A model generated the notes under the pieces. The model was given only the letters and a program-made list of their open reading frames with translations, did no database searches and was not told the DNA's origin. Shown here piece by piece: positions 8,687-32,208 of a stretch of DNA of 33,220 nucleotides (position 1 is its first letter; the number at the start of each line of letters is the position of its first letter). A program made the position numbers and the translations under genes. The DNA comes from Bacteroidota bacterium (lineage in GTDB: Bacteria; Bacteroidota; Bacteroidia; Chitinophagales; Chitinophagaceae), in NCBI GenBank assembly GCA_023426425.1, contig JAFAAT010000108.1, forward strand, positions 1 through 33,220. The letters run 5' to 3'.

Positions 8687-8700
8687 CTGACAGAAGTCAG
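8687..8700. promoter_or_regulatory. TGAC-N4-GTCA palindrome (ctgacagaagtcag)
   Basis: Perfect palindrome about 40 nt upstream of the HMA gene ATG. Its 12-nt core tgacagaagtca is identical to the site at 12390-12401. Confidence 0.5.
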
Positions 8701-12388: not shown

Positions 12389-12402
12389 ATGACAGAAGTC
12401 AT
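12389..12402. promoter_or_regulatory. TGAC-N4-GTCA palindrome (atgacagaagtcat)
   Basis: Perfect palindrome in the divergent spacer. It lies 98 nt from the decarboxylase ATG and 115 nt from the fasciclin ATG. Confidence 0.5.
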
Positions 12403-13096: not shown

Positions 13097-13130
13097 AAAC
13101 ACGAAAGCTCCCCGGGAGCTTTCGTGTTTT
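13097..13130. terminator. bidirectional terminator hairpin
   Basis: aaacacgaaagctccc/gggagctttcgtgttt: perfect 16-bp inverted repeat around a 2-nt centre, followed by tt and preceded by tttt, which reads aaaa on the minus strand, so the minus-strand U-run comes only from the aaa inside the stem arm. Sits between the convergent fasciclin and crp/fnr genes and overlaps the stop of the latter. Confidence 0.7.
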
Positions 13131-13857
13131 ACAGGAACGACTGAGGCTGATACAGATTAGCTGTCCGTTTAAGTTTGTTCTGATCAATAATTCTGATTTT
13201 CTTTCCTACGAACCCAATAATTTCCTCGCTCTTAAAGTCCGAAAGCAATCTAATAGTCGTCTCCGTGGCAGTACCTACCAGGTCTGCGATTTCTTCCCTT
13301 GTCAGTAACACATTGATTGTATCGCTGTTTTCTTCAAACCCGTACGTCTCTTTGAGAAACAATAAGCCACGTGCCAGTCTTTCACGTACCGGTCTTTGTG
13401 CAAGCTCTGTTAGATGGTTTTCAGCTTGTTTCAGATCATTAGTCAAAAGCTGAATGATGCCCATTGCCAGCTTCATATTGGAGCTGAGAACTTCAAAAAA
13501 TACATCCTTTGGTATGAAAACAAGGTTGCTGTCTTCTATAGCCACCGCACTAGCGTTATACTTTTCGTGACAAAATAGCGCACGATACCCGAGAAGGTCT
13601 CCAGCTTTGGCCATTCTAAGGATTTGCATCTTCCCGTCGTCCCCGCTGTGTTCGACTTTCACTTTGCCTTTATCAATCCCGTAAATGCCGAGAGGATAGC
13701 TTCCTTCATTGAACACTGGTTGTCCCTTCGGGAAGAACAGGCAGTCTTTTCTTTGATTAAATAGTTCCATCTGTTGGTCTGAAAGACAGGAGAATAAGGA
13801 TTGGTGGGTAAGGTCGCAATCTCCGAAGACCCGGTATGGCGCGTGTTTATGTTTCAT
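13129..13857 (-). CDS. Crp/Fnr family transcriptional regulator
   Basis: 242 aa. cNMP-binding-like beta-roll (FFPKGQPVFNEGSYPLGIYGIDKGKVKV...GDLLGYRALF). C-terminal HTH LTREEIADLVGTATETTIRLLSDFKSEEII. Only two N-terminal Cys (GDCDL, FSCL), so it does not carry the classical four-Cys FNR cluster signature. Confidence 0.9.
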   Translation of the reverse strand: MKHKHAPYRVFGDCDLTHQSLFSCLSDQQMELFNQRKDCLFFPKGQPVFNEGSYPLGIYGIDKGKVKVEHSGDDGKMQILRMAKAGDLLGYRALFCHEKYNASAVAIEDSNLVFIPKDVFFEVLSSNMKLAMGIIQLLTNDLKQAENHLTELAQRPVRERLARGLLFLKETYGFEENSDTINVLLTREEIADLVGTATETTIRLLSDFKSEEIIGFVGKKIRIIDQNKLKRTANLYQPQSFL

Positions 13858-13919: not shown

Positions 13920-13933
13920 CTGACACTAGTCAG
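13920..13933. promoter_or_regulatory. TGAC-N4-GTCA palindrome (ctgacactagtcag)
   Basis: Perfect palindrome 62 nt upstream of the crp/fnr ATG. Its centre is 22 bp from the next box. Confidence 0.5.
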
Positions 13934-13941
13934 CTTGATCC

Positions 13942-13955
13942 ATGACATCGGTCAT
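13942..13955. promoter_or_regulatory. TGAC-N4-GTCA palindrome (atgacatcggtcat)
   Basis: Perfect palindrome 47 nt upstream of the TTG start of the cytochrome c/HCO-like operon. Confidence 0.55.
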
Positions 13956-14002: not shown

Positions 14003-14392
14003 TTGAGAAGTGTACTTACCATATTGTCTGTTGTGTTCCTCTGCTATTCGCTGATTGTTTACAAATACAGTGATCCCAGGCAGGGTAGCCTTCGGCCTGG
14101 TGAACAAGTGCTCGCAGGCTGGGACACCTGGCAGCAGAAGAATTGTCAGAGTTGTCACCAGATATACGGCCTGGGTGGTTATGCCGGTCCGGATCTCACT
14201 AATACAGTCCGTCAGCGTTCGCCGGAGTATTTAAAGGCGATAATCAAATCCGGAACAGCAGCCATGCCGGACTTCAGGTTAAGCCCAAAACAGGTTGATG
14301 AACTTGTTGCTTTTCTTGATTGGGTTGATAAAACGGGTGCTTCAAAAGTGCCAGATTCTCTGGTACACTGGACAGGTAGCTATAGACAATGA
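14003..14392 (+). CDS. membrane-anchored mono-haem c-type cytochrome (NorC-position subunit)
   Basis: 129 aa. An in-frame stop at 13994 leaves TTG 14003 as the only start. N-terminal TM helix, single CQSCH haem site followed by GLGGYAGPDLT, and a candidate Met ligand in GTAAMPDF. Stop overlaps the next ATG (ATGA). Confidence 0.8.
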   Translation: MRSVLTILSVVFLCYSLIVYKYSDPRQGSLRPGEQVLAGWDTWQQKNCQSCHQIYGLGGYAGPDLTNTVRQRSPEYLKAIIKSGTAAMPDFRLSPKQVDELVAFLDWVDKTGASKVPDSLVHWTGSYRQ

Positions 14393-15777
14393 ATATGAGC
14401 AAAAGCCTGAAGATATTAACTGGTTTCAGTCTGCTCTTGCTGGCAGCAGCTCTCTTCTTTGGAATGATCAGTGGCTTTGCATTTCTATATCCGGGCAGCT
14501 TTAATGAATACCTCCCTTTTTACCAGCTACGTCCCATGCACGTTTCTGCTGCGTTATTCTGGATTATCTCCGGGGCAACAACAGGTATTCTTTTTTACAA
14601 GCAGCAGGTATTCGGAGCAAAGGAAAACTTTTTGGACAGAACCTTTGTTCTCCTCTGGCTGAGCTCCATTATTGCTGTGTTTGTGTTTTATGCCTTCAAA
14701 CAATTCGGAGGAAGGGAATACTGGGAGTTTCCTCCTTTTTTAGGTATTCCGATTTTGCTTGCATGGTTTTGCCTGATAGGCTCCTACTTTAAGGCGTGGA
14801 GACGGAGACCTGCGCCCACTCCTTTGTATATCTGGATGTGGAGTACCGGAATTATCTTCTTTCTGATCACCTTTCTAGAGCAAAACCTCTATCAGATACC
14901 GTGGTTCAGGGAGTCTTTTCTTCGGGAGCTGACTGTCCAATGGAAGTCTAATGGAGCTATGGTCGGTGCCTGGAATCAAATGATCTATGGCACTTCGTTG
15001 TTTATAGCTGTGAAGTTGTCAGGAGACACAAAAGCTGGGAATAGCAACAAAGCCTTTTTCTTTTACTTCCTGGGGCTTACTAACCTTATGTTCAATTGGG
15101 GTCATCATATTTATAATCTTCCAACCAGCTCATGGATACGCCATATTTCTTATGCCATCAGTATGACTGAATGGATACTGTTCATCAGCATACTCCGCGA
15201 CTTCAGGAAGAAAACTTCGCAACAAAGGCACAGCGGGCGAATTAGCTATAGATTTCTGATAGTTGCGGAGTACTGGGTTTTTGCGAATCTCTGCCTGGCC
15301 CTGATGATGAGTATTCCAGCAATAAACCGTTATACACACGGCACGCATATCACTGTAGCTCATGCCATGGGGGCAACAATAGGAATCAATTCAATGATAC
15401 TGCTTGCTTCCCTGGCAACAATGCTGAAGGTTGACAGGCTTGCTTTAAGGCGCAGACAGAATATCAGGTTCGCCTTCAGGATTTTTCAGTTTGCATTTGT
15501 TGTCTTCTGGCTAGCACTGATTGTTGCTGGTGTTCTTAAAGGATACAGGGAAGTAGCGCTGGGGATTGCCGATTTCCAGATCGTCATGAAACCCATTTGG
15601 CCGGTATTGCTGGTTTTTGTCCTTGCAGGAGTGGTCATGTTTGTCAGTATGGTCTCCATTGTCTTTCAGTTTATCTCAGCACTGCGACTGCCTCCTTTGT
15701 CTGCTACAGCAGGCCTACCTGTCGCCACCACAACTCAGATACCAGCGAGTGCAGAAAAGCCAAAACAACTTATATGA
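14389..15777 (+). CDS. haem-copper oxidase superfamily subunit I-like protein (cNOR/cbb3-like, atypical ligand set)
   Basis: 462 aa with about 12 TM helices. Motifs LRPMH51 (helix-II-like), NWGH239H240IY (helix-VII-like HH) and THGTHITVAH325AM327GATIG (helix-X-like). There is no His between residues 52 and 238. Confidence 0.8.
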   Translation: MNMSKSLKILTGFSLLLLAAALFFGMISGFAFLYPGSFNEYLPFYQLRPMHVSAALFWIISGATTGILFYKQQVFGAKENFLDRTFVLLWLSSIIAVFVFYAFKQFGGREYWEFPPFLGIPILLAWFCLIGSYFKAWRRRPAPTPLYIWMWSTGIIFFLITFLEQNLYQIPWFRESFLRELTVQWKSNGAMVGAWNQMIYGTSLFIAVKLSGDTKAGNSNKAFFFYFLGLTNLMFNWGHHIYNLPTSSWIRHISYAISMTEWILFISILRDFRKKTSQQRHSGRISYRFLIVAEYWVFANLCLALMMSIPAINRYTHGTHITVAHAMGATIGINSMILLASLATMLKVDRLALRRRQNIRFAFRIFQFAFVVFWLALIVAGVLKGYREVALGIADFQIVMKPIWPVLLVFVLAGVVMFVSMVSIVFQFISALRLPPLSATAGLPVATTTQIPASAEKPKQLI

Positions 15778-16487
15778 GAAATCAGATGCTCTATTTTTTC
15801 GTATTGATACTAACTCTTTCCTCCTGCCAGAAGAAGGATCAGCTGGCATCATCCGGAACTTTAAGCCTGAGTATTCTTCATCACGTAGATGGAAAATCAC
15901 TGAGTTTTGATTCTGTTTTGTTCCTAAATGCTTCAGGAGAGCTCTATAGTGTTACAAGGTTGGAATATTATCTAAGCAGCTTCCGGCTCTACCACAAGGG
16001 TGAAGTCGAATATAGCGCGGACAGCGTTTATTATATCAATGCCCGGGACAGCGCCCTAACAATCGTACTGTCACAGGTGCCCGTCGGACATTATGATTCC
16101 ATGAGCTTCTTCATTGGCCTTAGTCCGGCATTAAACATGCATGGACAACTGCACCCGACGCCTGCTAACGTAGCTATGCAATGGCCGGAAGTAATGGGTG
16201 GTGGTTATCATTTTCTGAAGTTTGAAGGCCATTGGGTAGATGGTGTTGCGCAGTCTGGTTTTGCTATCCACGTGGGTACCGATCCTTTTTTGATCTATGC
16301 CGGTTGTAATAGTGATATGACTATTGCAGATGGCAAGACAACAGCCTCGCTGCGAATGAATGTGAATGAATGGCTGCGGAATCCTCATCAGTTTAGTTTC
16401 AAAACAGATGGAGTATATACTATGGATAGTGGCCCACTTATGGACAAGATCAGGAAGAATGGGGGCGATGTTTTCACTTTAAACTAA
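15774..16487 (+). CDS. MbnP-like lipoprotein
   Basis: Start trimmed to ATG 15774, which forms an ATGA overlap with the upstream stop. Lipoprotein signal LTLSSC. Motif MQWPEVMGGGYHFLKFEGHW resembles the MbnP family, which is paired with a di-haem peroxidase. Confidence 0.7.
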   Translation: MRNQMLYFFVLILTLSSCQKKDQLASSGTLSLSILHHVDGKSLSFDSVLFLNASGELYSVTRLEYYLSSFRLYHKGEVEYSADSVYYINARDSALTIVLSQVPVGHYDSMSFFIGLSPALNMHGQLHPTPANVAMQWPEVMGGGYHFLKFEGHWVDGVAQSGFAIHVGTDPFLIYAGCNSDMTIADGKTTASLRMNVNEWLRNPHQFSFKTDGVYTMDSGPLMDKIRKNGGDVFTLN

Positions 16488-17539
16488 TGTTTATGCGCAC
16501 AGTGCTGTTCGTCGTGACAATGCTTTCTTTATCTGTCTTTTCCTGCAAAAGTGATCAGGCAAACAAGGATGACAACCCAGAGCCCGAGCCGCCAGTGGAT
16601 ACGTCCATTGTCCTGACGCCCTATGAGATTATTCCTCCTGCCCACTTTCCGGAAATGGCCATTCCAGCAGATAATCAACCGTACGTGGAGCGTATAAAGC
16701 TCGGTAGAATGCTTTACTATGATCCTGTGTTGTCCAACGATGGCAGGGCCTGTGCCAGTTGCCACCACCAGTCTAAAGGGTTTACAATAGATGGGATGGT
16801 TGGAGGCATGCCTGTCCTGCCTCACGTGAATCTTGGCTGGTCAAATAAGTTTATGTGGAATGGTTCTGAGCAGGGTACGCTGGAGGACGTGATGCATTTT
16901 GAGGTAGCAAGTTTCTTTGGTACCGACCTTAATAAAATTAACCAGGATACTGCCTATAGAAGATTGTTCAGAAAACACTTCGGTGTCAACTACATAACGT
17001 ACAAGGAGCTTTCCTATGCGTTGGCACAATTTGTACGAACTATGATCTCCAGGGATTCGAAGTACGACAGGTACATTTCGGGACAGGCGCAACTGGAGTA
17101 TAATGAAATGAAAGGTCGAAATATCTTCTTTTCTGAAAAAGGCGATTGTTTTCACTGTCATATCAACCCTGTGATGACTGATAATGACTTACACAACACG
17201 GGCCTTGACAGCATTTATTCCAAAGAAATAGACAAGGGGTACTTCAATGTTACAGGGAAGATTTCAGATCTGGGAAAATTCAGGACACCAAACCTTCGCA
17301 ACGTAGCCTTGAGAAAGAACTTCATGCACGACGGACGATTTAAAAGCCTCGAAGAAGTGGTGGAATTTTATAACAGTGGGGTCCGCCGGGTCGACAACCT
17401 CGATCCTATCATGACCAAGCCAGGCAAGGAGAAAGGTTTGAACCTTACCCCAGAGGAAAAATTCCAGTTGGTATCGTTCCTGAAAACACTAACTGATGAA
17501 CAATTCCTGAATGATTCAACTTTAACAAAACTGGATTAA
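16487..17539 (+). CDS. di-haem cytochrome c peroxidase / MauG / MbnH-like enzyme
   Basis: 350 aa with a signal peptide. Two haem c sites (CASCHH and CFHCH). CCP-family motifs (FRTPNLRNVA, MHDGRF). Start forms a TAATG overlap with the MbnP-like stop. Confidence 0.9.
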   Translation: MFMRTVLFVVTMLSLSVFSCKSDQANKDDNPEPEPPVDTSIVLTPYEIIPPAHFPEMAIPADNQPYVERIKLGRMLYYDPVLSNDGRACASCHHQSKGFTIDGMVGGMPVLPHVNLGWSNKFMWNGSEQGTLEDVMHFEVASFFGTDLNKINQDTAYRRLFRKHFGVNYITYKELSYALAQFVRTMISRDSKYDRYISGQAQLEYNEMKGRNIFFSEKGDCFHCHINPVMTDNDLHNTGLDSIYSKEIDKGYFNVTGKISDLGKFRTPNLRNVALRKNFMHDGRFKSLEEVVEFYNSGVRRVDNLDPIMTKPGKEKGLNLTPEEKFQLVSFLKTLTDEQFLNDSTLTKLD

Positions 17540-17557
17540 GGACAAAAATGTCCGTAA
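17536..17557 (+). promoter_or_regulatory. operator-like near-palindrome ttaAGGACAaaaaTGTCCGtaa containing RGACAA-N4-GTCCGT
   Basis: 22-bp element with 8 of 9 symmetric half-sites, 25 nt upstream of the hemerythrin ATG. Near-identical copy at 18547-18564. A Bacteroidota -7-like box taactttg follows at 17570-17577. Confidence 0.5.
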
Positions 17558-17582
17558 TGGTATTTTGTATAACTTTGTAGCA

Positions 17583-18077
17583 ATGAAAGAGCCCAAACCA
17601 ATCAAAAGAAGTAAGGAGCTGATGCAACTGTCGCGGGATCATCACCTGGGACTTTTGCTATGCTGGAAGATCAGGACTGGCCTTTCAAACAATATTGATG
17701 AGGAACGGATAAAAGCCTACGTAGTGGCGGCGTATGCTCAGGAACTAAAAGAGCATTTTTATCAGGAGGAACAGCTGCTTTTCAATCCTATGCCTGAGGA
17801 TGACCTGATGGTTTGTAAAGCTATCGAGCAGCACAGTGCGATTCGTGATCTTGAGCAACAGATTAGTGTAGCACAACAGCCCGCTAAAGAACTGTTAACT
17901 CAATTTGCAGACTTACTGGAACAGCATATAAGATATGAAGAGCGGGAGCTTTTCCCATACCTGGAGGCGGCATTGGATGCAGAAACTTTATCAATAGCTG
18001 GCGCAGCAGTTGATAAGTATCATGAAACCGCTGAGCCATTGAATTGGTCAGATGAATTTTGGATAAGGAAAAGGTAA
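17583..18077 (+). CDS. hemerythrin (HHE cation-binding) domain protein
   Basis: The ORF track start at 17565 is TTG. ATG 17583 gives MKEPKPIKR...; ATG 17622 (MQLSRDHH) is an alternative. Motifs LSRDHH, EEQLLF, EQHSA and HIRYEERELFP. Confidence 0.8.
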   Translation: MKEPKPIKRSKELMQLSRDHHLGLLLCWKIRTGLSNNIDEERIKAYVVAAYAQELKEHFYQEEQLLFNPMPEDDLMVCKAIEQHSAIRDLEQQISVAQQPAKELLTQFADLLEQHIRYEERELFPYLEAALDAETLSIAGAAVDKYHETAEPLNWSDEFWIRKR

Positions 18078-18079
18078 TT

Positions 18080-18511
18080 ATGTTTTCAAAAGCTTGTGAA
18101 TATGCGATAAGAGCTGCAGTCTATATAGCTGCAGAAACAGACGAAACTAAGAAAGTAGGTATCCAGGACATTTGCATACAAATAGAGGCTCCACAACATT
18201 TTACTGCCAAAATTCTTCAGATACTTACCCGAAAGCAGATCGTAAGCTCACAAAAGGGAGTGAACGGCGGATTTTACTTAAACAAAATACAGAAAAACAC
18301 ACCCATACGAGAGATAGTTGTAGCAGTAGACGGTGCCAAAGTATTTACAGGGTGCGGACTTGGGTTGAAGCAATGTTCAGAAGAAAAGCCCTGTCCCATT
18401 CACAACCAGTTTAAAGAATTGAGATCCAGGCTAAATAAGATGATGGAGCAAACCACTATAGAAATGCTGGGCAGGCGACTGAAGAATGGCGAGTCGGTAC
18501 TGGTACAATAA
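18080..18511 (+). CDS. Rrf2 family transcriptional regulator (NsrR/IscR-like, Fe-S type)
   Basis: Start trimmed to ATG 18080 (MFSKACEYAIRAAVY), 2 nt after the hemerythrin stop. Winged HTH followed by C-x6-C-x5-C-x2-H (GCGLGLKQCSEEKPCPIH), a cluster-ligand spacing close to IscR/NsrR. Confidence 0.9.
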   Translation: MFSKACEYAIRAAVYIAAETDETKKVGIQDICIQIEAPQHFTAKILQILTRKQIVSSQKGVNGGFYLNKIQKNTPIREIVVAVDGAKVFTGCGLGLKQCSEEKPCPIHNQFKELRSRLNKMMEQTTIEMLGRRLKNGESVLVQ

Positions 18512-18546
18512 TTATCGGTTAAATAAAAAAATTTACTCTAATAAAA

Positions 18547-18564
18547 GACAAAAACGTCCGTAAT
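18547..18564 (+). promoter_or_regulatory. operator-like element gacaaaaacgtccgtaat (RGACAA-N4-GTCCGT)
   Basis: 17 of 18 nt identical to 17541-17558. Ends 11 nt before the ATG of the NnrS-like gene. Confidence 0.5.
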
Positions 18565-18574
18565 AGAGATTCTT

Positions 18575-19828
18575 ATGAAGCAGTTGGAAAGATGGGTTGG
18601 TATTTCCCTGGTTAACCTGGCGATTGTGGCTTTACTTGGCATGACGCTACGTGCAAAGCTTATTTTCTCAATACCATTTGTGAACTTCAAGAACACACTT
18701 CATGCTCACTCACATTTTGCTTTTGGGGGCTGGATAACTCTGGCACTGCTTGCACTCATCACTTATCAATTTCTTCCGCGACGGGAATCTGACAAACCGG
18801 TTTATAAATGGTTGCTGGGTGGCATATTGTTCAATGCAGTAGGCATGCTGGTCAGCTTTCCTTTCCAGGGGTATGCATTTTTCTCCATTCTTTTCTCAAC
18901 ACTATTCATCTTTGTTACCTATGCTTTTAGCTGGGTCTTCATCCGAGACCTGCGGACATCAAAAGTGACAAGAAGTGTCAGGGTGCTGGTTATTTCAGCT
19001 ATGATAAGTATGGTGCTCTCTTCTGTCGGTGCATTTACTCTTGCTTATTTACTCGCCACGGAGTCTACCAATGTATTTCTCTATAAGGATGCGATTTACA
19101 CTTATCTGCATTTACAATACAGTGGATTCTTCACCTTAACGGTGTTTGCATTGCTTTTCCACCAGTTGAAAATTGACCACAGATCTATCTGGCGATTCTC
19201 CGTGGTCCTGGTAATGTCTGTGATTCCTGCTTTGTTTATGTCCTACCTGTGGCACAATCCGAACCTGGGCTTTCGTATAGTTGCCTTTTTAGGAAGCGCC
19301 CTAACAGTAGCGGCTCTCCTGTTGTTCTTTGGAACTTTAAAGATCTTACGGCCAAGCATTCCAACTCTTAAGCCAATTGTGCGAAGAGTTGGAATGATAG
19401 CACTGATAGCATTTGTCTTCAAAATGGTATTTCAGGCCCTGACTATTGTGCCTTCATTAGGTACGCTGGTATTTGCAAATCGCCCGGTAATCATCGGTTT
19501 TCTGCATCTGGTGTTGCTGGCATTCATTTCACTTTATCTGCTTGCGCATTTTATTCAATCCGGATTACTGTCCGTAAACCGGTTGAGCAGTTTTGCTATC
19601 TGGCTATTCATCACCGGCGTGCTAATCAATGAAATTGTACTCTTTACTCAGGGTCTTGGATTTATGTTGATGATGACGAACACGATTACCCAGTGGCTGT
19701 TGTTAGTTGCGGCAGTTGCTTTGTTTGTCGGTGCCTTGCTGATAGCCTATAGTAAACTCACGCTGAACCGGCCATTCCAATTTAATTATTCACACACAAG
19801 ATTATCAAATAACTATTCACAATCTTAA
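18575..19828 (+). CDS. 12-TM membrane protein, NnrS-like (tentative)
   Basis: 417 aa with about 12 predicted TM helices. Conserved-looking His motifs LHAHSHFAFGGW (TM2), YLHLQYSGFF and GFLHLVLLAF. Position directly after the Rrf2 gene and before RIC fits NO-regulon membrane proteins. The family call is from memory of the NnrS HxHxxxFG motif. Confidence 0.55.
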   Translation: MKQLERWVGISLVNLAIVALLGMTLRAKLIFSIPFVNFKNTLHAHSHFAFGGWITLALLALITYQFLPRRESDKPVYKWLLGGILFNAVGMLVSFPFQGYAFFSILFSTLFIFVTYAFSWVFIRDLRTSKVTRSVRVLVISAMISMVLSSVGAFTLAYLLATESTNVFLYKDAIYTYLHLQYSGFFTLTVFALLFHQLKIDHRSIWRFSVVLVMSVIPALFMSYLWHNPNLGFRIVAFLGSALTVAALLLFFGTLKILRPSIPTLKPIVRRVGMIALIAFVFKMVFQALTIVPSLGTLVFANRPVIIGFLHLVLLAFISLYLLAHFIQSGLLSVNRLSSFAIWLFITGVLINEIVLFTQGLGFMLMMTNTITQWLLLVAAVALFVGALLIAYSKLTLNRPFQFNYSHTRLSNNYSQS

Positions 19829-19840
19829 ATCAACTGAAAA

Positions 19841-20767
19841 ATGAACAACGTAACAATCGACGTGACGGCTCTGGAACCCAGAATGAAGCACCCAACTATC
19901 TTTGATGCCTTCGACTCAATAGGTGCAGGTGGCACTGTCTTAATCCACAATGATCACGATCCTAAGCCACTATATTATCAGCTACTGGGTGAGAGAGGAA
20001 ATTGCTTTTCCTGGACCTATCTGGCTAATGGTCCGGAAGTTTGGGAAGTGGAAATCAGGAAGAATGGCGCAAATGGAGAGACAGTAGGGGAGATAGCGGC
20101 AAAGGATATGCGTAAGGCTGAGTTGCTGAAGAAACTGGGTATTGACTTCTGCTGTGGTGGAAAGAAATCCCTGGAAGATGCCTGTGCTGAAAAGGGACTA
20201 GATGTGAACAAGGTGAAGGCTGAATTGGAGCAATCGGAGAAAATGCCTGCCACTGGTCCACAACTTGACTTCAACACATTTTCTGCATCTTTTCTTGCAG
20301 ACTATATTCAGAACGTGCACCACGGCTATGTGAACAAGAATGCACCGATGATTGAGGATCTGGCGCAAAAGGTAGCTGCGCATCATGGGCAGCACGTACC
20401 CTTATTGGTTGCTGTGTATAGAAAGGTCAATGAGCTTTGTTCGGAATTGCTCACACACATGAAGAAGGAAGAACAGGTGCTGTTTCCAACTATCAAGCTG
20501 CTGGAGAGTGGTGGCATGGTGAAGATTGGATTTGATTCTATTAATGATCCGATTTTCGTAATGGAAAGAGACCATGACATAGCGGGCGAACTGATGCGCG
20601 ATATCCGTCAGCTTACGCATGACTTCCAGGTGCCTGAAGGTGCCTGCAACAGCATTAGAATGCTGTATTTTAAGCTGGAAGAGTTTGAGTCTGATTTGCT
20701 GCAGCATATCCACCTTGAGAATAATATCCTTTTTCCGAAGGCTGCTGCGCTGGAACAGAAGAATTAG
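19841..20767 (+). CDS. iron-sulfur cluster repair di-iron protein (RIC/YtfE/ScdA) with N-terminal DUF2249-like module
   Basis: 308 aa. Residues 1-75 carry the DUF2249-like signature (RMKHPTIFDAF...LIHNDHDPKPLYYQL...GPEVWEVEI). Then an ScdA_N motif (LGIDFCCGGKKSLEDAC). Then a hemerythrin-like di-iron domain (HHGYV...EEQVLFP...ERDHD...HIHLENNILFP). Confidence 0.85.
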   Translation: MNNVTIDVTALEPRMKHPTIFDAFDSIGAGGTVLIHNDHDPKPLYYQLLGERGNCFSWTYLANGPEVWEVEIRKNGANGETVGEIAAKDMRKAELLKKLGIDFCCGGKKSLEDACAEKGLDVNKVKAELEQSEKMPATGPQLDFNTFSASFLADYIQNVHHGYVNKNAPMIEDLAQKVAAHHGQHVPLLVAVYRKVNELCSELLTHMKKEEQVLFPTIKLLESGGMVKIGFDSINDPIFVMERDHDIAGELMRDIRQLTHDFQVPEGACNSIRMLYFKLEEFESDLLQHIHLENNILFPKAAALEQKN

Positions 20768-20775
20768 TCACACTG

Positions 20776-20798
20776 AAAGGCGCAGCAATTGCGCCTTT
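20776..20798 (+). terminator. intra-cluster hairpin (terminator/attenuator-like)
   Basis: aaaggcgca-gcaat-tgcgccttt: 9-bp stem with a 5-nt loop, whose 3' arm ends in ttt, followed by ctaattt. Sits in the 45-nt gap between RIC and the DUF1858/DUF2249 gene. Confidence 0.5.
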
Positions 20799-20812
20799 CT
20801 AATTTCCTTGTC

Positions 20813-21613
20813 ATGACCATTATTAATTCCCGTACAAAGATATCCGCACTTATTAAAGCCAATCCTGGTGCCATAGAGGCGCTTGCGAGTATCAACAGTC
20901 ATTTCCATAAGCTTCGTAGCCCTTTTCTAAGAAAGATTCTTGCAGCCAGAGTAACCATAGCTGAGGCTGCAAAAATGGGAGGTGTCACAATTGCTGCTTT
21001 TTATGAAAGGCTGATACCGTTGGGATTTCAGGTTCAGGGCGACGAACAGGAAGTCGCGGAACGCGCCGTATCTATTGAAGGAGACCATCTTCAGGCATTT
21101 GACCGGCAACTGGATGTTACGGAAGACCTAAACCAGGGTAAAGACCCGTTCAGGGTGATTATGAAAGAGGTGAATGAACTAAGGCAGGGTGAAGTGCTTC
21201 AACTGGTCAGTCCGTTTGAACCTGTGCCGCTGATAAGAGTGCTTACAGAAAGAGGACTTGAAGCAAAGTCGTTTTCGAAGTCCGCAGATGAATGGTTTAC
21301 CTACATCAGGATGAATGGCGCAATTGAAGACGGCAAACCTGCTGCTCCTGGGAGCGGGGATTTTGAAGCGGTGCTTTCGAGATTTGAAGGTAAGGCTCAG
21401 ACTGTGGATGTAAGGCAGCTACCTATGCCTCAGCCAATGATGACTATTTTGAGCAGGCTTGAGGAGCTGCGTGAGGGGGAAGCATTATTTGTGCATCATA
21501 AAAAGGTGCCCATGTTTCTTCTTCCACAACTGACAGAAAAAGGATGGGCTTATACCTATCGCAGTGCTGGGGAGGGAGTGGAAATGATAATCTACAGAGA
21601 AGTAGCCGAATGA
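20813..21613 (+). CDS. DUF1858 + 2x DUF2249-like domain protein
   Basis: The ORF track start at 20789 is TTG; ATG 20813 gives MTIINSRTKISALIK. N-terminal DUF1858-like segment (ISALIKANPGAIEAL...TIAEAAKMGGV). Then two modules with the DUF2249-like pattern (LDVTEDL...LRQGEVLQLVSPFEPVPL; VDVRQLPMPQPMM...LREGEALFVHHKKVPMFL). Confidence 0.7.
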   Translation: MTIINSRTKISALIKANPGAIEALASINSHFHKLRSPFLRKILAARVTIAEAAKMGGVTIAAFYERLIPLGFQVQGDEQEVAERAVSIEGDHLQAFDRQLDVTEDLNQGKDPFRVIMKEVNELRQGEVLQLVSPFEPVPLIRVLTERGLEAKSFSKSADEWFTYIRMNGAIEDGKPAAPGSGDFEAVLSRFEGKAQTVDVRQLPMPQPMMTILSRLEELREGEALFVHHKKVPMFLLPQLTEKGWAYTYRSAGEGVEMIIYREVAE

Positions 21614-22881
21614 AACCAGCGGAGGAACATATACCCCCCAGGATAACCATACTTCCTTACTATGTCGCGGGAGGGTTTAGCTTCCTGCTGGTTTCCCTGA
21701 TGTGTGTTTCCTCAAGTGAGTCGTTGCTTGGTCACTACTTCACACCCAGACTGCTTGCCATCACTCATTTGGCTGTACTTGGCTGGGCCACCATGGTTAT
21801 CTTCGGGGCGAGCAACCAGCTTGCGCCTGTGATTGCTGAAAGGAGATTGTACAGTGAGCGGATACCCGTAGTCGTTTTTTTGTTTAAGGTGGTGGGGATC
21901 GCGATACTCGTATTTTCATTCTGGGTGTTTCAGCTGGGGGTACTCAGCTATGCAGGTGCGGGGCTATTGATTGCTGCCATATTACTTCATGCTATCAACC
22001 TTTACAAGACAGCCGCCAGGGGAAAGGAGGATATTGTAAAAGATCTATTCATTGTCTCGCATTTCTGGCTGGTGTTAACCGCATTGATTGGTCTGACATT
22101 GCTGCTGAACCTTCGTTTTGCATTTCTTTCCGAAGATCATCTGCATTACCTGAGGGTGCATTCATTGATCGGCATGGGTGGTTGGTTTCTTCAGTTGGTC
22201 ATAGGTGTGAGCTCAAGACTTATACCCATGTTTTTGTTAAGCGCCAATGAGGAGCGTAAGTCGTTGCAGGCATCATTCTACCTGCTGAACGGGGCTATGT
22301 TGCTTTTCTTTCTTGAGGGGATGGTGCTGGGTACAAGAGCGGGTGGACCTCTATGCCTGCTGATGGTTGGAGCAGCCATAGTGCTGTATGCAAGGTATGT
22401 CAACAGGTGTCGTAAGACGGCTATGAGAAAGCAAGCGGACGCGGGTATGCAGCAGAGTTTTCTTGCTATTGTACTGCTGATGGCTGCTATAGTACTATTG
22501 AGCTTTCTTTTGTCTATCGCAGGTCAGGAGCAACCTCGCCTGATGGTGGCTTTTGGGTTTTCATTTTTCACTGGTTTTATCTCCCTTCTTATTCTAGGGC
22601 AAACATTCAAGACACTGCCATTTATAGTCTGGATGCATCTGGTGAGCCATGAATCCCTGCCCGGTGTCATGCCGAAGGACCTCTATAGCGAGAGGTGGGT
22701 TCGTATTCAGATGATCCTGTTCCTGCTGTCCTTCCTGGTGTCGGTGTCCTCAATAATTTTAGGACTGCAACTTTTGCTAGTGGTTGGATTAAGCCTTTTA
22801 AGCCTTACTGCTGCTCTTTATTTTGGTCATGTGCTATATATCATTTCAAAACTGAAGAACTATGAACCTCACCATATCTGA
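21610..22881 (+). CDS. polytopic His-rich membrane protein, function unknown
   Basis: Start trimmed to ATG 21610, which forms an ATGA overlap with the upstream stop. 423 aa with about 12 TM helices. Recurrent motif [HG]-x3-4-G-[WF]-x5-6-G-x4-L-x-P (ITHLAVLGWATMVIFGASNQLAP; VHSLIGMGGWFLQLVIGVSSRLIP; FFTGFISLLILGQTFKTLP). Confidence 0.7.
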   Translation: MKPAEEHIPPRITILPYYVAGGFSFLLVSLMCVSSSESLLGHYFTPRLLAITHLAVLGWATMVIFGASNQLAPVIAERRLYSERIPVVVFLFKVVGIAILVFSFWVFQLGVLSYAGAGLLIAAILLHAINLYKTAARGKEDIVKDLFIVSHFWLVLTALIGLTLLLNLRFAFLSEDHLHYLRVHSLIGMGGWFLQLVIGVSSRLIPMFLLSANEERKSLQASFYLLNGAMLLFFLEGMVLGTRAGGPLCLLMVGAAIVLYARYVNRCRKTAMRKQADAGMQQSFLAIVLLMAAIVLLSFLLSIAGQEQPRLMVAFGFSFFTGFISLLILGQTFKTLPFIVWMHLVSHESLPGVMPKDLYSERWVRIQMILFLLSFLVSVSSIILGLQLLLVVGLSLLSLTAALYFGHVLYIISKLKNYEPHHI

Positions 22882-23194
22882 TTCAAGTTATAACCTGGAG
22901 CTACAGGTGCTGAATGCACTTTATGAAGTAAATGACCCGGAGCTGAACATCAATATCGTAGATCTTGGACTGGTATATGAGGTAAGAGTGGATGAGGTGG
23001 CCGGACAGATCATGATAGAAATGACCCTTTCGACCCGTTCCTGTCCGCTTGGAGGATTAATTACCAGTCATGTGAAGGTTGCTGCAGAGGGGGCGTTGCC
23101 GGGGTATACTGCAGAAGTGAACCTGGTTTGGAGTCCGAAATGGACTTCGGACCGAATCTCCGAAGCCGGGAGAGCAGCGCTTGGGTGGGAGTAG
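22862..23194 (+). CDS. DUF59/MIP18-family metal-sulfur cluster assembly factor (SufT/PaaD-like)
   Basis: 110 aa. Motifs VNDPELNINIVDLGLVYEV and MTLSTRSCPL with the conserved Cys. Start overlaps the upstream gene by 20 nt. Confidence 0.85.
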   Translation: MNLTISDSSYNLELQVLNALYEVNDPELNINIVDLGLVYEVRVDEVAGQIMIEMTLSTRSCPLGGLITSHVKVAAEGALPGYTAEVNLVWSPKWTSDRISEAGRAALGWE

Positions 23195-29975: not shown

Positions 29976-29989
29976 ATGACTTGAGTCAT
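29976..29989. promoter_or_regulatory. TGAC-N4-GTCA palindrome (atgacttgagtcat)
   Basis: Perfect palindrome 74 nt upstream of the first gene of the nos operon. Confidence 0.55.
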
Positions 29990-29994
29990 AACCA

Positions 29995-30010
29995 ACGGAC
30001 AAAGTTGTCT
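29995..30010 (-). promoter_or_regulatory. RGACAA-N4-GTCCGT element (agacaactttgtccgt on the minus strand)
   Basis: Matches the 16-mers at 17540-17555 and 18546-18561 at all 12 outer positions. Same orientation relative to the downstream (nos) operon. Confidence 0.4.
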
Positions 30011-30221
30011 TTTTTGCGCCCTAATTTGATGATCTTTATCATTGACTCTCCTTCAACAAAATATTGCAAAACCTACAAAAAAACTATACCTGTGTTTGCT
30101 TAATGCTGCAGTCTGTGTTTCGTTAACTGACAGTCAATGCATTACAGGCATTAACGGCTTAGAGAAAGTTTTGTAACGGGTAACTGAGAATGGTTTTTAT
30201 GTCGCATCTGAAAACTCTTTC

Positions 30222-30461
30222 ATGAAGGTCAAGGTGTTATTTGCTGGTTTAGCAGTGTGCTGCATTACATCATGTGCAACTAATGATGCGAATACGGAAA
30301 GAAGCAATGAAGACTCAGCGAGCAGTTCTGTGATTAACGCTGAGGGTGCAGAGAATAATCCGTATAATCTTCCGGGTTCTGACACGGGAGCCATTCACGA
30401 GAATACAACTGAGCCAGGTGTACTGGATAAGGATGCGAGAGACAGTTCGGTTAGCCAGTGA
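30222..30461 (+). CDS. small hypothetical lipoprotein
   Basis: 79 aa. Signal MKVKVLFAGLAVCCITSC followed by a polar, disordered-looking tail. Divergent from the nos operon. Short length keeps confidence modest. Confidence 0.45.
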   Translation: MKVKVLFAGLAVCCITSCATNDANTERSNEDSASSSVINAEGAENNPYNLPGSDTGAIHENTTEPGVLDKDARDSSVSQ

Positions 30462-32208
30462 CCAACTGGGCGAGCTGGGAGTCCAGGCGTATCAGCTGCA
30501 TCTTAGATTGTGCAGTCGCTGGCAGTGATTTGTAGTATTCAATTCCTTGTTGGAGATTCGTCTTGAACAAGGCAAAGTGTTTTTTTTGTTTTTCCGTTAA
30601 TGGTGCACCACATTCTGCTATCTGGTTTCTCAGGTAGTCTATGTATAGCCCGAGCTCGTTGATGAACATATGCGCGCGCTCTAAGCTGTTACGGATGGAT
30701 GTTCTGCCATAAATATGATCCACCATCTGCTTCAGCGTAAATACTCCTGAAAAGTAGGCGAGGTTGGGGCCTGGGCAGATGGCGACAGCAGACATCTTAT
30801 GAGGTATGGGTATTTCGTTTTTGAGCCTGACAGATGCGGTAAGTCCTTCACAAAGACAATCCTTTTCCCCGATTTTTTCCAATGCTATTTCTAACTGGGC
30901 TCCGTTCAGGCCAGAATCCCTGAGCTGTTTTTCTTTAAGGTTCTGATACTGACGTGAGGCAGTACAAATAGGTAGTTCTGTGAACTCTGTATTGCTGGAG
31001 AGATATTTTTTGTAGCATGGACTTCCCGGCCTCTTCTTTTCTATCCTGGTTTTTCTTTGCGCTTCTGAGGAGCTGTGTCTGAAGTTGTGGAAAGGCACCC
31101 CAAGGGGGGAAGCATTGCTGAGGAAGAAGTCTTCCTTTTTCGCGCTTGCGAGCTGTGCGAGTGTAGCTTCATCTACATTAGTAGCTTCAGGCACGAGGAG
31201 AAACGGGCTCCCCCATCCAACACTATCGAGCTGGTACCAATCGAGCAGGAACCTGTGTTCCTGTGCAGTGCCGACACCACCCTGCGCGGTAAGCTTTTGT
31301 TGCGGCACCTGCCTGAAGGGACGGCGGCCTTTGTGAGTTAATGCTTCATTGCAGATCGTGTATAGTTCTTTGGTAAGGGCGGTGCGGTTTTCCCGGAAGT
31401 TTTCAAGTATTGGCCCCATAAGCAGGCCGTCGGTGGCGAATGCATGACCACCACAGTTTAGTCCTGATTCGATTCTGAATTCTGAGATCCACAAGCCCTT
31501 TTTAGCAAAGATCTTTCCCTGTACCAGTGCGGAGCGGTAGTCACTAACTTTCAGAATGATCTTTTTCTTCACCAGGCCGTTTTCATCAGGGTAGAAGTCG
31601 TCGAACTGTTCAGCATAGTTATACAGCCGTGGATTGTAGCCGGCGGAGAAGACAACTGAGGAGGTAAGTTCACTATTGGCAAATCCCCGCAACGCTGAAA
31701 GGGCATCTGAGAACTCATCCGGGAGTCTCTCACCTGTCCTGGTATAGCGAGGATTATCCACTTTAGCCATGATGTTTACATCTATGCTGCCAGCTACAAT
31801 ATATTTTCTAAGATGAAGCTGAAGGTCCTGTTTTTCGGTTAATTCGGGTAGTGCAAGCATCCGCAGGTACATCTTTTTTCCTGGTGCGTCTTCAGGCAAC
31901 AGTTCGAAGTACCTGGTAAGATCACTGTCTGGTTCGAAAGGCATAAGTTTCAAATCCAGCAGCTGTGCCTGGACAATGTCATTTACCAGGTTCAGGTAGG
32001 CAGTGATCCTTCTGGCGCGCGCGTCCGTCGCATCTTCCCTGATAGGCGTAAAAGGTACTCCATATACCCCGGAGTAGTGGCGACGCAGGTCATCAAGAAG
32101 TTCATCCTCAATAATCGAGATTACGGAAGAGATGCCGAACCGGGCGACTTTGATCGGAGTATCGATGCTAAAGCCAAGTCCGAGGACAGGTATATGAAAT
32201 GAATGCAT
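30451..32208 (-). CDS. conserved-looking 585-aa protein of unknown function, possible NPD/FMN TIM-barrel-like oxidoreductase with Cys cluster
   Basis: ATG at 32208. Segments ESGLNCGGHAF and TAQGGVGT...VGWGSPFLLVPEA loosely recall the (E/D)xGGH and GG-x-GT...GT-x-F-L-x-x-E motifs of nitronate-monooxygenase/FabK/PfaD-type enzymes. Five Cys in the C-terminal third (SPC, PIC, DCLCEG, AICPGP). Confidence 0.6.
   Translation of the reverse strand: MHSFHIPVLGLGFSIDTPIKVARFGISSVISIIEDELLDDLRRHYSGVYGVPFTPIREDATDARARRITAYLNLVNDIVQAQLLDLKLMPFEPDSDLTRYFELLPEDAPGKKMYLRMLALPELTEKQDLQLHLRKYIVAGSIDVNIMAKVDNPRYTRTGERLPDEFSDALSALRGFANSELTSSVVFSAGYNPRLYNYAEQFDDFYPDENGLVKKKIILKVSDYRSALVQGKIFAKKGLWISEFRIESGLNCGGHAFATDGLLMGPILENFRENRTALTKELYTICNEALTHKGRRPFRQVPQQKLTAQGGVGTAQEHRFLLDWYQLDSVGWGSPFLLVPEATNVDEATLAQLASAKKEDFFLSNASPLGVPFHNFRHSSSEAQRKTRIEKKRPGSPCYKKYLSSNTEFTELPICTASRQYQNLKEKQLRDSGLNGAQLEIALEKIGEKDCLCEGLTASVRLKNEIPIPHKMSAVAICPGPNLAYFSGVFTLKQMVDHIYGRTSIRNSLERAHMFINELGLYIDYLRNQIAECGAPLTEKQKKHFALFKTNLQQGIEYYKSLPATAQSKMQLIRLDSQLAQLVTG

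Follow-up and report, generated by a model that had tools for sequence, protein, structure and literature searches.

Introduction

The described regulators closest to the system considered here are Rrf2-family proteins that carry iron-sulphur (Fe-S) clusters. NsrR is a nitric oxide (NO)-sensing [4Fe-4S] repressor of the Proteobacteria, Bacillus and Streptomyces, IscR is a [2Fe-2S] protein of Fe-S biogenesis and RsrR is a redox-sensing [2Fe-2S] protein of Streptomyces venezuelae, the ligands of which are Cys, Glu and His from two subunits. Negative autoregulation is the rule for IscR, RsrR and the NsrR of Streptomyces. Here we analyse a 26-bp palindromic element that occurs three times in a 33,220-nucleotide stretch of DNA from a Bacteroidota bacterium (hereafter the window; GenBank assembly GCA_023426425.1, contig JAFAAT010000108.1), which is a nitrogen-oxide island of a member of the Chitinophagaceae. 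The three copies are most likely operators of the Rrf2 transcription factor encoded at 18080–18511 between two of them, which is predicted to repress three transcription units, namely its own operon, an operon that encodes the RIC protein and the clade II nos operon.

Clade II nos clusters have been reported to be enriched in nearby Rrf2 genes (PMC6264515), which is the only relevant remark in the literature that we searched; a 2026 paper on flavobacterial nitrous oxide (N2O) consumption does not mention regulators, and our literature search found no description of this regulator, motif or regulon. Comparison of the sequences points to an undescribed Fe-S Rrf2 repressor together with its operator, which would be an analogue of NsrR and not an orthologue.

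Results

Three copies of the element in the island

Exact matches to the pattern RGACAANNNNGTCCGT occur three times in the window, at 17540–17555 and 18546–18561 on the forward strand and at 29995–30010 on the reverse strand, against a chance expectation of 0.00 (none of 100 dinucleotide-preserving shuffles contained any match). An earlier note on this DNA had proposed the element as an asymmetric 16-mer, RGACAA-N4-GTCCGT, that is rare by chance, and its description of the sites was accurate: gacaaaaatgtccgtaat at 17541–17558 and gacaaaaacgtccgtaat at 18547–18564 are identical at 17 of 18 positions, the minus strand of 29995–30010 reads agacaactttgtccgt, the three sites are oriented alike with respect to the genes that follow them and the stated distances to the starts deviate by no more than 1 nt from the true ones (24 nt before the hemerythrin ATG at 17583, and 10 nt before the ATG at 18575). 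The 16-mer is, however, only the core of the motif, which is a 26-bp palindrome, and the G in GTCCGT, although present here, is peculiar to this genome, the family consensus having T. Similarly, the near-palindrome noticed at site 1 is real but extends to 24 bp (17535–17558) within the 26-bp family motif; this site reads ATTAAGGACA-AAAA-TGTCCGTAAT, with one mismatched pair. The three candidate operators, with their scores against a weight matrix derived from other genomes, are:

17534–17559, forward strand: operator 1 (core 17540–17555; 24-bp dyad 17535–17558), 17.9 bits, upstream of hemerythrin-rrf2
18540–18565, forward strand: operator 2 (core 18546–18561), 22.1 bits, the best in the window, between the rrf2 stop codon and the ATG of the membrane protein gene membA at 18575
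29991–30016, reverse strand: operator 3 (core 29995–30010), 11.8 bits, the third best in the window, upstream of cytochrome c-nosZ-nosBLDFY

Since RGACAANNNNGTCCGT was derived from the very sites being tested, this independent matrix test was made with 36 unique orthologous sites from other genomes, with the window sequence excluded. The three sites rank as the top three in the window (22.1, 17.9 and 11.8 bits), and at a threshold of at least 11.5 bits the three sites compare with 0.025 expected from 200 first-order Markov simulations. The fourth-best match, AATGAAAGGTCGAAATATCTTCTTTT at 17107–17132 (10.2 bits), is within the peroxidase gene, some 430 bp ahead of operator 1, and may represent an auxiliary site or have arisen by chance; the chance expectation for matches of at least 10 bits is 0.05 per window. 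A search for the short palindrome GGACANNNNTGTCC with two mismatches gave no enrichment in the window (18 against 13 expected), implying that the information resides in the longer motif. Sites 1 and 2 both have an A-rich spacer and are unusually alike.

The motif accompanies rrf2 in several orders of the Bacteroidota

A profile of 22 Rrf2 homologues retrieved 80 Bacteroidota loci from reference genomes, covering the Chitinophagales, Sphingobacteriales (Mucilaginibacter), Cytophagales (Cyclobacterium, Fulvivirga, Catalinimonas, Roseivirgaceae), Flavobacterium and Saprospiraceae. Nor-like, hemerythrin, membA, RIC and nos genes nearly always surround rrf2 there, and in approximately 40 of the loci an obvious palindrome directly follows the rrf2 stop codon. 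The family consensus is AATAAARGAYA-N4-TRTCYTTTATT, a 26-bp motif of 11-4-11 architecture in which most of the information is in AAARGAY and RTCYTTT. Over the 1.14 Mb that the related loci comprise, 162 sites score at least 14 bits, compared with 2.1 expected, 40 of the 162 being training sites of the matrix and the remaining matches independent of it. Most of the sites (137 of the 162, 85%) are outside long open reading frames, in 10.8% of the bases. When sites of at least 18 bits with a gene starting no more than 200 nt downstream are considered, this gene is membA in 31 loci, hemerythrin in 29, cytochrome c-nor in 14, RIC in 12 and rrf2 in 11, with fewer cases ahead of the pair of cytochrome c peroxidase and MbnP genes and of cytochrome c-nosZ.

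A site is found beside rrf2 in 60 of the 80 loci, and 30 have two sites, as in the window. In keeping with the operator function proposed in the earlier note, the element is conserved at orthologous positions, upstream of orthologous genes, in the Chitinophagales, Sphingobacteriales, Cytophagales, Flavobacteriales and Saprospiraceae, and in alignments with the closest relatives the invariant intergenic columns coincide with the operator. Operator-type sites upstream of cytochrome c-nosZ are present in loci L075, L078, L084, L140, L159, L169, L177 and L190 (L numbers denote individual loci throughout).

The spacer of 4–6 nt in relatives is T-rich (ATTTTG or TTTTTG) before hemerythrin and A-rich (AAAAAT) before membA (L001–L034), its orientation thus being consistent with respect to the gene. 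Flavobacterium loci L063, L068–L074, L079 and L080 contain two paralogous rrf2 genes approximately 4.4 kb apart that flank the nor-like operon, with a site 22 nt after the first paralogue.

Loci selected by the motif alone often carry rrf2 nearby

Selection of loci through the Rrf2 protein introduces a bias, which is removed by searching for exact AATAAARGAYANNNNTRTCYTTTATT matches in metagenome contigs. This search gave 120 loci, in which genes within 2.5 kb of the motif encode Rrf2 in 52 cases, RIC in 37, MembA in 12, nor-like proteins in 8–10, cytochrome c-nos in 9 and a Crp/Fnr-family protein in 2, so that an Rrf2 neighbour is 26 times as frequent as a Crp/Fnr neighbour. The downstream gene is rrf2 in 40 loci, RIC in 31, cytochrome c-nor in 14 and cytochrome c-nos in 4. 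Single loci have the motif ahead of a flavohemoglobin gene (globin plus FAD and NAD domains; L083), a gene for an ApbC/NUBPL-type Fe-S carrier with a DUF59 domain (L116) and a gene for a thioredoxin-like protein (L118). About 30 of the 120 loci are without a recognisable island gene; some of these are short contigs with the site at the end and some bear plausible targets (Hmp, ApbC, thioredoxin). A few have neighbours of no apparent relation (2-oxoglutarate dehydrogenase, TolC-like), where the match may be a chance A/T-rich one. Since the neighbours are rrf2 and NO-related and Fe-S-related genes, and 85% of the sites are outside long open reading frames and clustered at NO and N2O genes, the element is not a dispersed repeat, a possibility that the earlier note had raised against its own proposal. 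Judged by its neighbours, the element marks NO-related and Fe-S-related genes and travels with rrf2.

The Rrf2 protein as the candidate cognate regulator

The closest homologues of the Rrf2 protein are from Flavipsychrobacter and Polluticoccus (75% identity). Its putative cluster ligands, C92-x6-C99-x5-C105-x2-H108, are invariant together with E7 in the 22 homologues, and the protein is therefore likely to carry an Fe-S cluster. The recognition-helix residues P38-H40-T42-A43-K44-I45-Q47 are also invariant in these homologues; across the family, invariance extends to the recognition-helix segment A-P-x-H-F-T-A-K-I-L-Q and the wing K-G-x-x-G-G-F, which agrees with an operator that is conserved across orders. 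In solved Rrf2-DNA complexes, the operators are 23–29 bp in length and the wings read the ends in the minor groove (PMC9338935). These complexes would accommodate a site of 26 bp whose ends are A/T-rich; the dyad has the size expected of an Rrf2 operator and the regulator gene adjoins the sites. The assignment made in the earlier note, of the sites as operators through which the adjacent Fe-S Rrf2 protein would control rrf2, the RIC operon and nos, is thus supported by the motif itself, which is conserved, stands at these genes and is linked to rrf2, and by the conserved cluster ligands of the protein.

Gene content of the island

The genes of the predicted regulon and their neighbours, with Pfam and NCBIfam matches where these were found, are:

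13129–13857, reverse strand: Crp/Fnr-family regulator gene (Pfam cNMP_binding and HTH_Crp_2)
14003–15777, forward strand: nor-like operon, cytochrome c and NorB-like haem-copper oxidase
15777–17539: MbnP-family protein (PF20243) and di-haem cytochrome c peroxidase (MauG family)
17583–18077, forward strand: hemerythrin-domain gene (Pfam PF01814, E 4e-14), the first gene of an operon with rrf2
18080–18511, forward strand: rrf2, candidate cognate regulator of 143 amino acids (Pfam Rrf2 PF02082, E 2e-23)
18575–23194, forward strand: predicted target operon MembA-RIC-DUF1858/DUF2249-MembB-DUF59, in which the gene order is kept in relatives, comprising the next five genes
18575–19828, forward strand: MembA, membrane protein without a Pfam match
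19841–20767, forward strand: DUF2249-RIC/YtfE fusion
20813–21613, forward strand: DUF1858-DUF2249 protein
21610–22881, forward strand: MembB, membrane protein without a Pfam match
22862–23194, forward strand: DUF59/FeS_assembly_P protein
29901 down to 23569, reverse strand: clade II nos operon, encoding cytochrome c, Sec-type NosZ, a NosB-like protein and NosL, D, F and Y

The hemerythrin stop codon is 2 nt ahead of the rrf2 ATG, and a hemerythrin gene is located directly upstream of rrf2 in most Chitinophagaceae and Cyclobacteriaceae loci. MembA, the commonest product of the first gene after the operator, is a polytopic protein with the motif H-A-H-S-H-F-A-F-G-G-W. The label ‘NnrS-like’ given to it previously is unsupported: no Pfam match was obtained even at E up to 5, and approximately 1000 homologues are every one named ‘hypothetical’. 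Both MembA and MembB are conserved polytopic membrane proteins outside Pfam and NCBIfam families.

The MbnP and MauG-family peroxidase genes resemble the MbnP/MbnH pair and accompany the island in L018, L021, L023, L025, L033, L066, L137 and L190; in several relatives the pair has its own Rrf2-type site upstream. A gene at 30451–32208 (reverse strand), encoding a 585-amino-acid protein without a Pfam family, recurs beside nor and nos islands in many Bacteroidota (L004, L007, L021, L023, L026, L033–L035, L044, L045 and L190).

Comparison with NsrR, IscR and RsrR

The predicted regulator resembles NsrR in belonging to the Rrf2 family, in its three conserved Cys residues and in having a palindrome of approximately 23–26 bp at the promoters of NO-detoxification genes (ytfE/RIC, hmp and nor); as with Streptomyces NsrR, autoregulation is predicted and relief of repression by NO is the likely logic. 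It differs from NsrR in its motif, AAGGAYA-N4-TRTCCTT being unrelated to the Streptomyces hmpA1 site AACACGAATATCATCTACCAATT, in being a family of the Bacteroidota and in a predicted regulon that takes in clade II nos, a co-transcribed hemerythrin and two unannotated membrane proteins. Against the NCBIfam model for NsrR (NF008240), with its cut-off of 182, the protein reaches 29 bits, and the published NsrR box gATGyAT-N5-ATrCATc (PMC1274295) shares no core with the family consensus. ‘NsrR-like’, the term used in the earlier note, is hence apt for function only and does not denote orthology or a related motif.

The likeness to IscR consists of the Cys3-His pattern with His two residues after the third Cys, an operator that overlaps an upstream promoter element, predicted negative autoregulation and some Fe-S targets (DUF59, ApbC). 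Unlike IscR, the spacing after the first Cys is C-x6-C and not C-x5-C, and no isc or suf operon is found among the targets; the score against the IscR model TIGR02010 is 52.5 bits (cut-off 207.55). The motif also appears to differ from IscR type 1 and type 2 sites. In a profile search of the PDB, solved Rrf2 proteins were only remotely similar (E 4e-7 to 1e-3). The best solved match was RsrR (6hsd/6y45, E 4e-7), which likewise has a palindromic operator and is autoregulated, but the similarity is remote and partial (residues 24–132) and the regulon differs; ScNsrR ranked behind RsrR and IscR (E 1.4e-4).

Position of the candidate operators relative to predicted promoters

The −7 promoter consensus of the Bacteroidota is TAnnTTTG, as established in promoter studies of Bacteroides and Flavobacterium. 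Two elements of the window are relevant in this respect:

17570–17577, forward strand: predicted −7 box TAACTTTG, which follows operator 1 by 10 nt and precedes the hemerythrin ATG by 5 nt
18520–18535, forward strand: conserved A/T box taaataaaaaaattta, 4 nt upstream of operator 2

Most relatives have a TAnnTTTG box 9–16 nt downstream of the operator before hemerythrin, and the hemerythrin ATG is 4–8 nt past the box in the window and several relatives. Because the box is so near the ATG, the hemerythrin-rrf2 mRNA is predicted to be leaderless or nearly so. Since the box lies downstream of operator 1, this operator is predicted to occupy positions from about −49 to −24 of the start, over the −33 region, placing it in the promoter and not in the 5′-untranslated region.

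Operator 2 is located 10 nt from the membA ATG (1–35 nt in relatives). In the A/T box that precedes it, the AAAAATTT columns are invariant or nearly so in relatives, in which a AAAAATTT(A/G) box, often taking in the rrf2 stop codon, is found 4–7 nt before the operator (L001–L034). It is possibly a −7 element, in degenerate form, of an internal promoter. An operator of the same type in L140 and L177 is preceded, at 3 nt, by a canonical −7 box, TACTTTTG. On account of the A/T box and this arrangement in L140 and L177, we think that operator 2 covers the start of a weak internal promoter; alternatively, it may act as a roadblock against transcription that reads through from rrf2. A promoter scan of sigma-70 style was uninformative for Bacteroidota. 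The predicted position of operator 1 over the −33 region, and that of the operators of L140 and L177 3 nt after the −7 box, are consistent with repression, and the positions of all three operators of the window would suit a repressor.

An FNR-type motif adjoins operator 3

Nor and nos genes are also the classes controlled by FNR, DNR, NnrR and HcpR, and a second palindrome, TGACNNNNGTCA (TGAC-N4-GTCA), is found at the nor and nos promoters of the window. There are five copies against 0.5 expected, all between genes:

8688–8699, 12390–12401, 13921–13932, 13943–13954 and 29977–29988: copies of TGAC-N4-GTCA
13920–13933 and 13942–13955: two perfect FNR-type palindromes, CTGAC-N4-GTCAG and ATGAC-N4-GTCAT respectively, between the crp/fnr gene and the nor-like operon
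29976–29989: FNR/DNR-type palindrome ATGAC-TTGA-GTCAT, separated from operator 3 by 1 bp (centre-to-centre distance 21 bp)

The motif matches the published FNR/HcpR-type consensus TTGACnnnnGTCAA (PMC1274295), and the five copies are probably the regulon of the Crp/Fnr protein encoded at 13129–13857. The same abutting composite of FNR-type and Rrf2-type sites is present in metagenome locus L190, and other nos promoters combine both motifs at other spacings. The matrix scan found no Rrf2-type site at the nor promoter of the window, which has FNR-type sites only, indicating that the two motifs are separable. Membership of the regulon is plastic in this respect, with an Rrf2-type site upstream of cytochrome c-nor in L005–L007, L011, L014–L020 and L024, while the nor promoters of L002 and L004 have FNR-type sites and no Rrf2-type site at 14 bits or more. 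One FNR-type copy in the window is upstream of genes for an HMA-domain protein and a TonB-dependent receptor (8648 down to 6040), which possibly serve copper uptake for NosZ, and another is upstream of a fasciclin gene (12518).

Alternative explanations for the element

The earlier note had offered a hairpin in the 5′-untranslated region as another reading, and more generally the element might act as RNA, a GGACA/UGUCC hairpin in a 5′ leader or between cistrons affecting stability, processing or translation. Sites 1 and 2 do fold better than shuffled sequences (−7.5 kcal/mol, z −2.3, and −5.8 kcal/mol, z −3.0, respectively), and read-through from rrf2, if it occurs, would transcribe site 2, which is between cistrons with a start codon 10 nt away. 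However, shuffles of site 3 fold as well as the site itself (z 0.18), the predicted transcription start is downstream of site 1, and the spacer is found in relatives in both orientations (AAAAT or ATTTT) relative to the downstream gene. Moreover, the arms vary independently: among 114 unique sites the pair formed by positions 10 and 17 is Watson-Crick in 45, against 55 expected under independence, with 25 C.A mismatches, and all five core positions can pair in only 43. This lack of compensatory pairing leaves the hairpin unsupported, and action as RNA is very improbable. Still less probable is a weak bidirectional intrinsic terminator that would end the rrf2 and neighbouring transcripts. The consensus AATAAA-GGACA-N4-TGTCC-TTTATT does possess an A-tract, a stem and a T-tract, and operator 2 follows a stop codon in most loci, but a terminator scan called none in 17300–18800, the stem is 3–5 bp and often mismatched, the window sites are without a T-tract (GTCCGTAAT) and in many cases the site is ahead of a first gene or in a divergent promoter region (as in L018, L066 and L183).

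If the element is a protein-binding site, the GGACA-N4-TGTCC palindrome could belong not to Rrf2 but to the Crp/Fnr regulator encoded at 13129–13857, acting as a DNR-, NnrR- or HcpR-like activator. The 5-N4-5 geometry of the core is typical of Crp/Fnr sites (PMC1274295), the gene is present in the same island and the centre of operator 1, near −37, is close to a class II activator position. We nevertheless consider this improbable: a Crp/Fnr gene is nearby in 2 of the 120 motif-selected loci compared with 52 for rrf2, most loci with the operator contain no Crp/Fnr gene, and TGAC-N4-GTCA is a better candidate for the Crp/Fnr motif, having two copies in the crp/fnr divergent promoter and one at nos, with similar TGAy-N4-GTCA pairs recurring in L002 and L004. 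The Rrf2-type sites thus differ in sequence from those of FNR-type regulators and are linked to rrf2, whereas the FNR motif has a separate candidate regulator. A different question is whether the Rrf2 protein, though binding the sites, senses Fe-S status, iron or oxygen/redox state in the manner of IscR or RsrR, or activates at some promoters. An effector such as oxygen, redox state or Fe-S status is possible given the IscR-like ligand pattern, with its conserved His, and RsrR as the nearest solved relative; among the NCBIfam subfamilies, the SUF regulator and IscR, and not NsrR, give the highest scores, and genes for Fe-S assembly and carrier proteins (DUF59, ApbC) are among the predicted targets. 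Yet every subfamily score is far below its cut-off, none of the sites adjoins an isc or suf biosynthesis operon and the core of the regulon is NO-related, which makes this alternative rather unlikely. On balance we favour NO as the most likely signal because the regulon (RIC/YtfE, NorB-like oxidase, flavohemoglobin, nos and Fe-S carriers) resembles NsrR regulons.

Several points weigh against our assignment of the sites as operators of an NO-responsive Rrf2 repressor. Besides the Crp/Fnr-like geometry, the possible redox effector and the share of training sites among the matrix matches, site 3 is weak (11.8 bits) with poor flanks, and no canonical −7 box accompanies operator 2, making its mode of action uncertain. 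Operator 1 is centred near −37 and Rrf2 proteins can also activate, as IscR does at suf, so that repression is the probable, and not the certain, sign of regulation. The sequence is present in a single public DNA run, from a sludge metagenome, and in no public RNA run. DNA binding by the Rrf2 protein, the sign of its action and its effector are what we infer from the conserved features described above.

Discussion

The mechanism that we consider most likely is one in which an Rrf2 dimer binds the 26-bp palindrome, the recognition helices reading the GAYA/TRTC cores and the wings reading the A/T-rich ends. With its Fe-S cluster intact, the protein would repress three units: its own hemerythrin-rrf2 operon, where operator 1 would cover the −33 region; the MembA-RIC-DUF1858/2249-MembB-DUF59 operon, where operator 2 would cover the start of an internal promoter or block read-through; and the clade II nos operon, where operator 3 abuts the site for an FNR-type activator, which Rrf2 binding could hinder. 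Damage to the cluster, most likely its nitrosylation by NO, would release the protein and so switch on NO detoxification, the repair of Fe-S clusters and the reduction of N2O.

Among the major sinks for the greenhouse gas N2O are Bacteroidota with clade II nosZ, in which NosR is lacking and very little is therefore understood of how nos is regulated. An undescribed, phylum-wide module of hemerythrin and Rrf2 that, together with an FNR-type activator, supplies the missing switch for clade II nosZ in the Bacteroidota is a tentative proposal, which we consider doubtful at present. If it is true, N2O reduction in these abundant and often non-denitrifying N2O consumers would be gated by NO, or by damage to Fe-S clusters, and not by N2O itself, and the co-transcribed hemerythrin would be a partner of the regulator, a sensor or a cluster-repair factor. 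The 26-bp operator, the candidate regulator and the predicted regulon (RIC, the NorB-like oxidase, Hmp, hemerythrin, two unannotated membrane proteins and nos) make the regulation of clade II nosZ directly testable. The motif moreover gives a physiological context to two conserved families of unannotated membrane proteins and provides a marker for annotating NO-responsive genes in thousands of Bacteroidota genomes.

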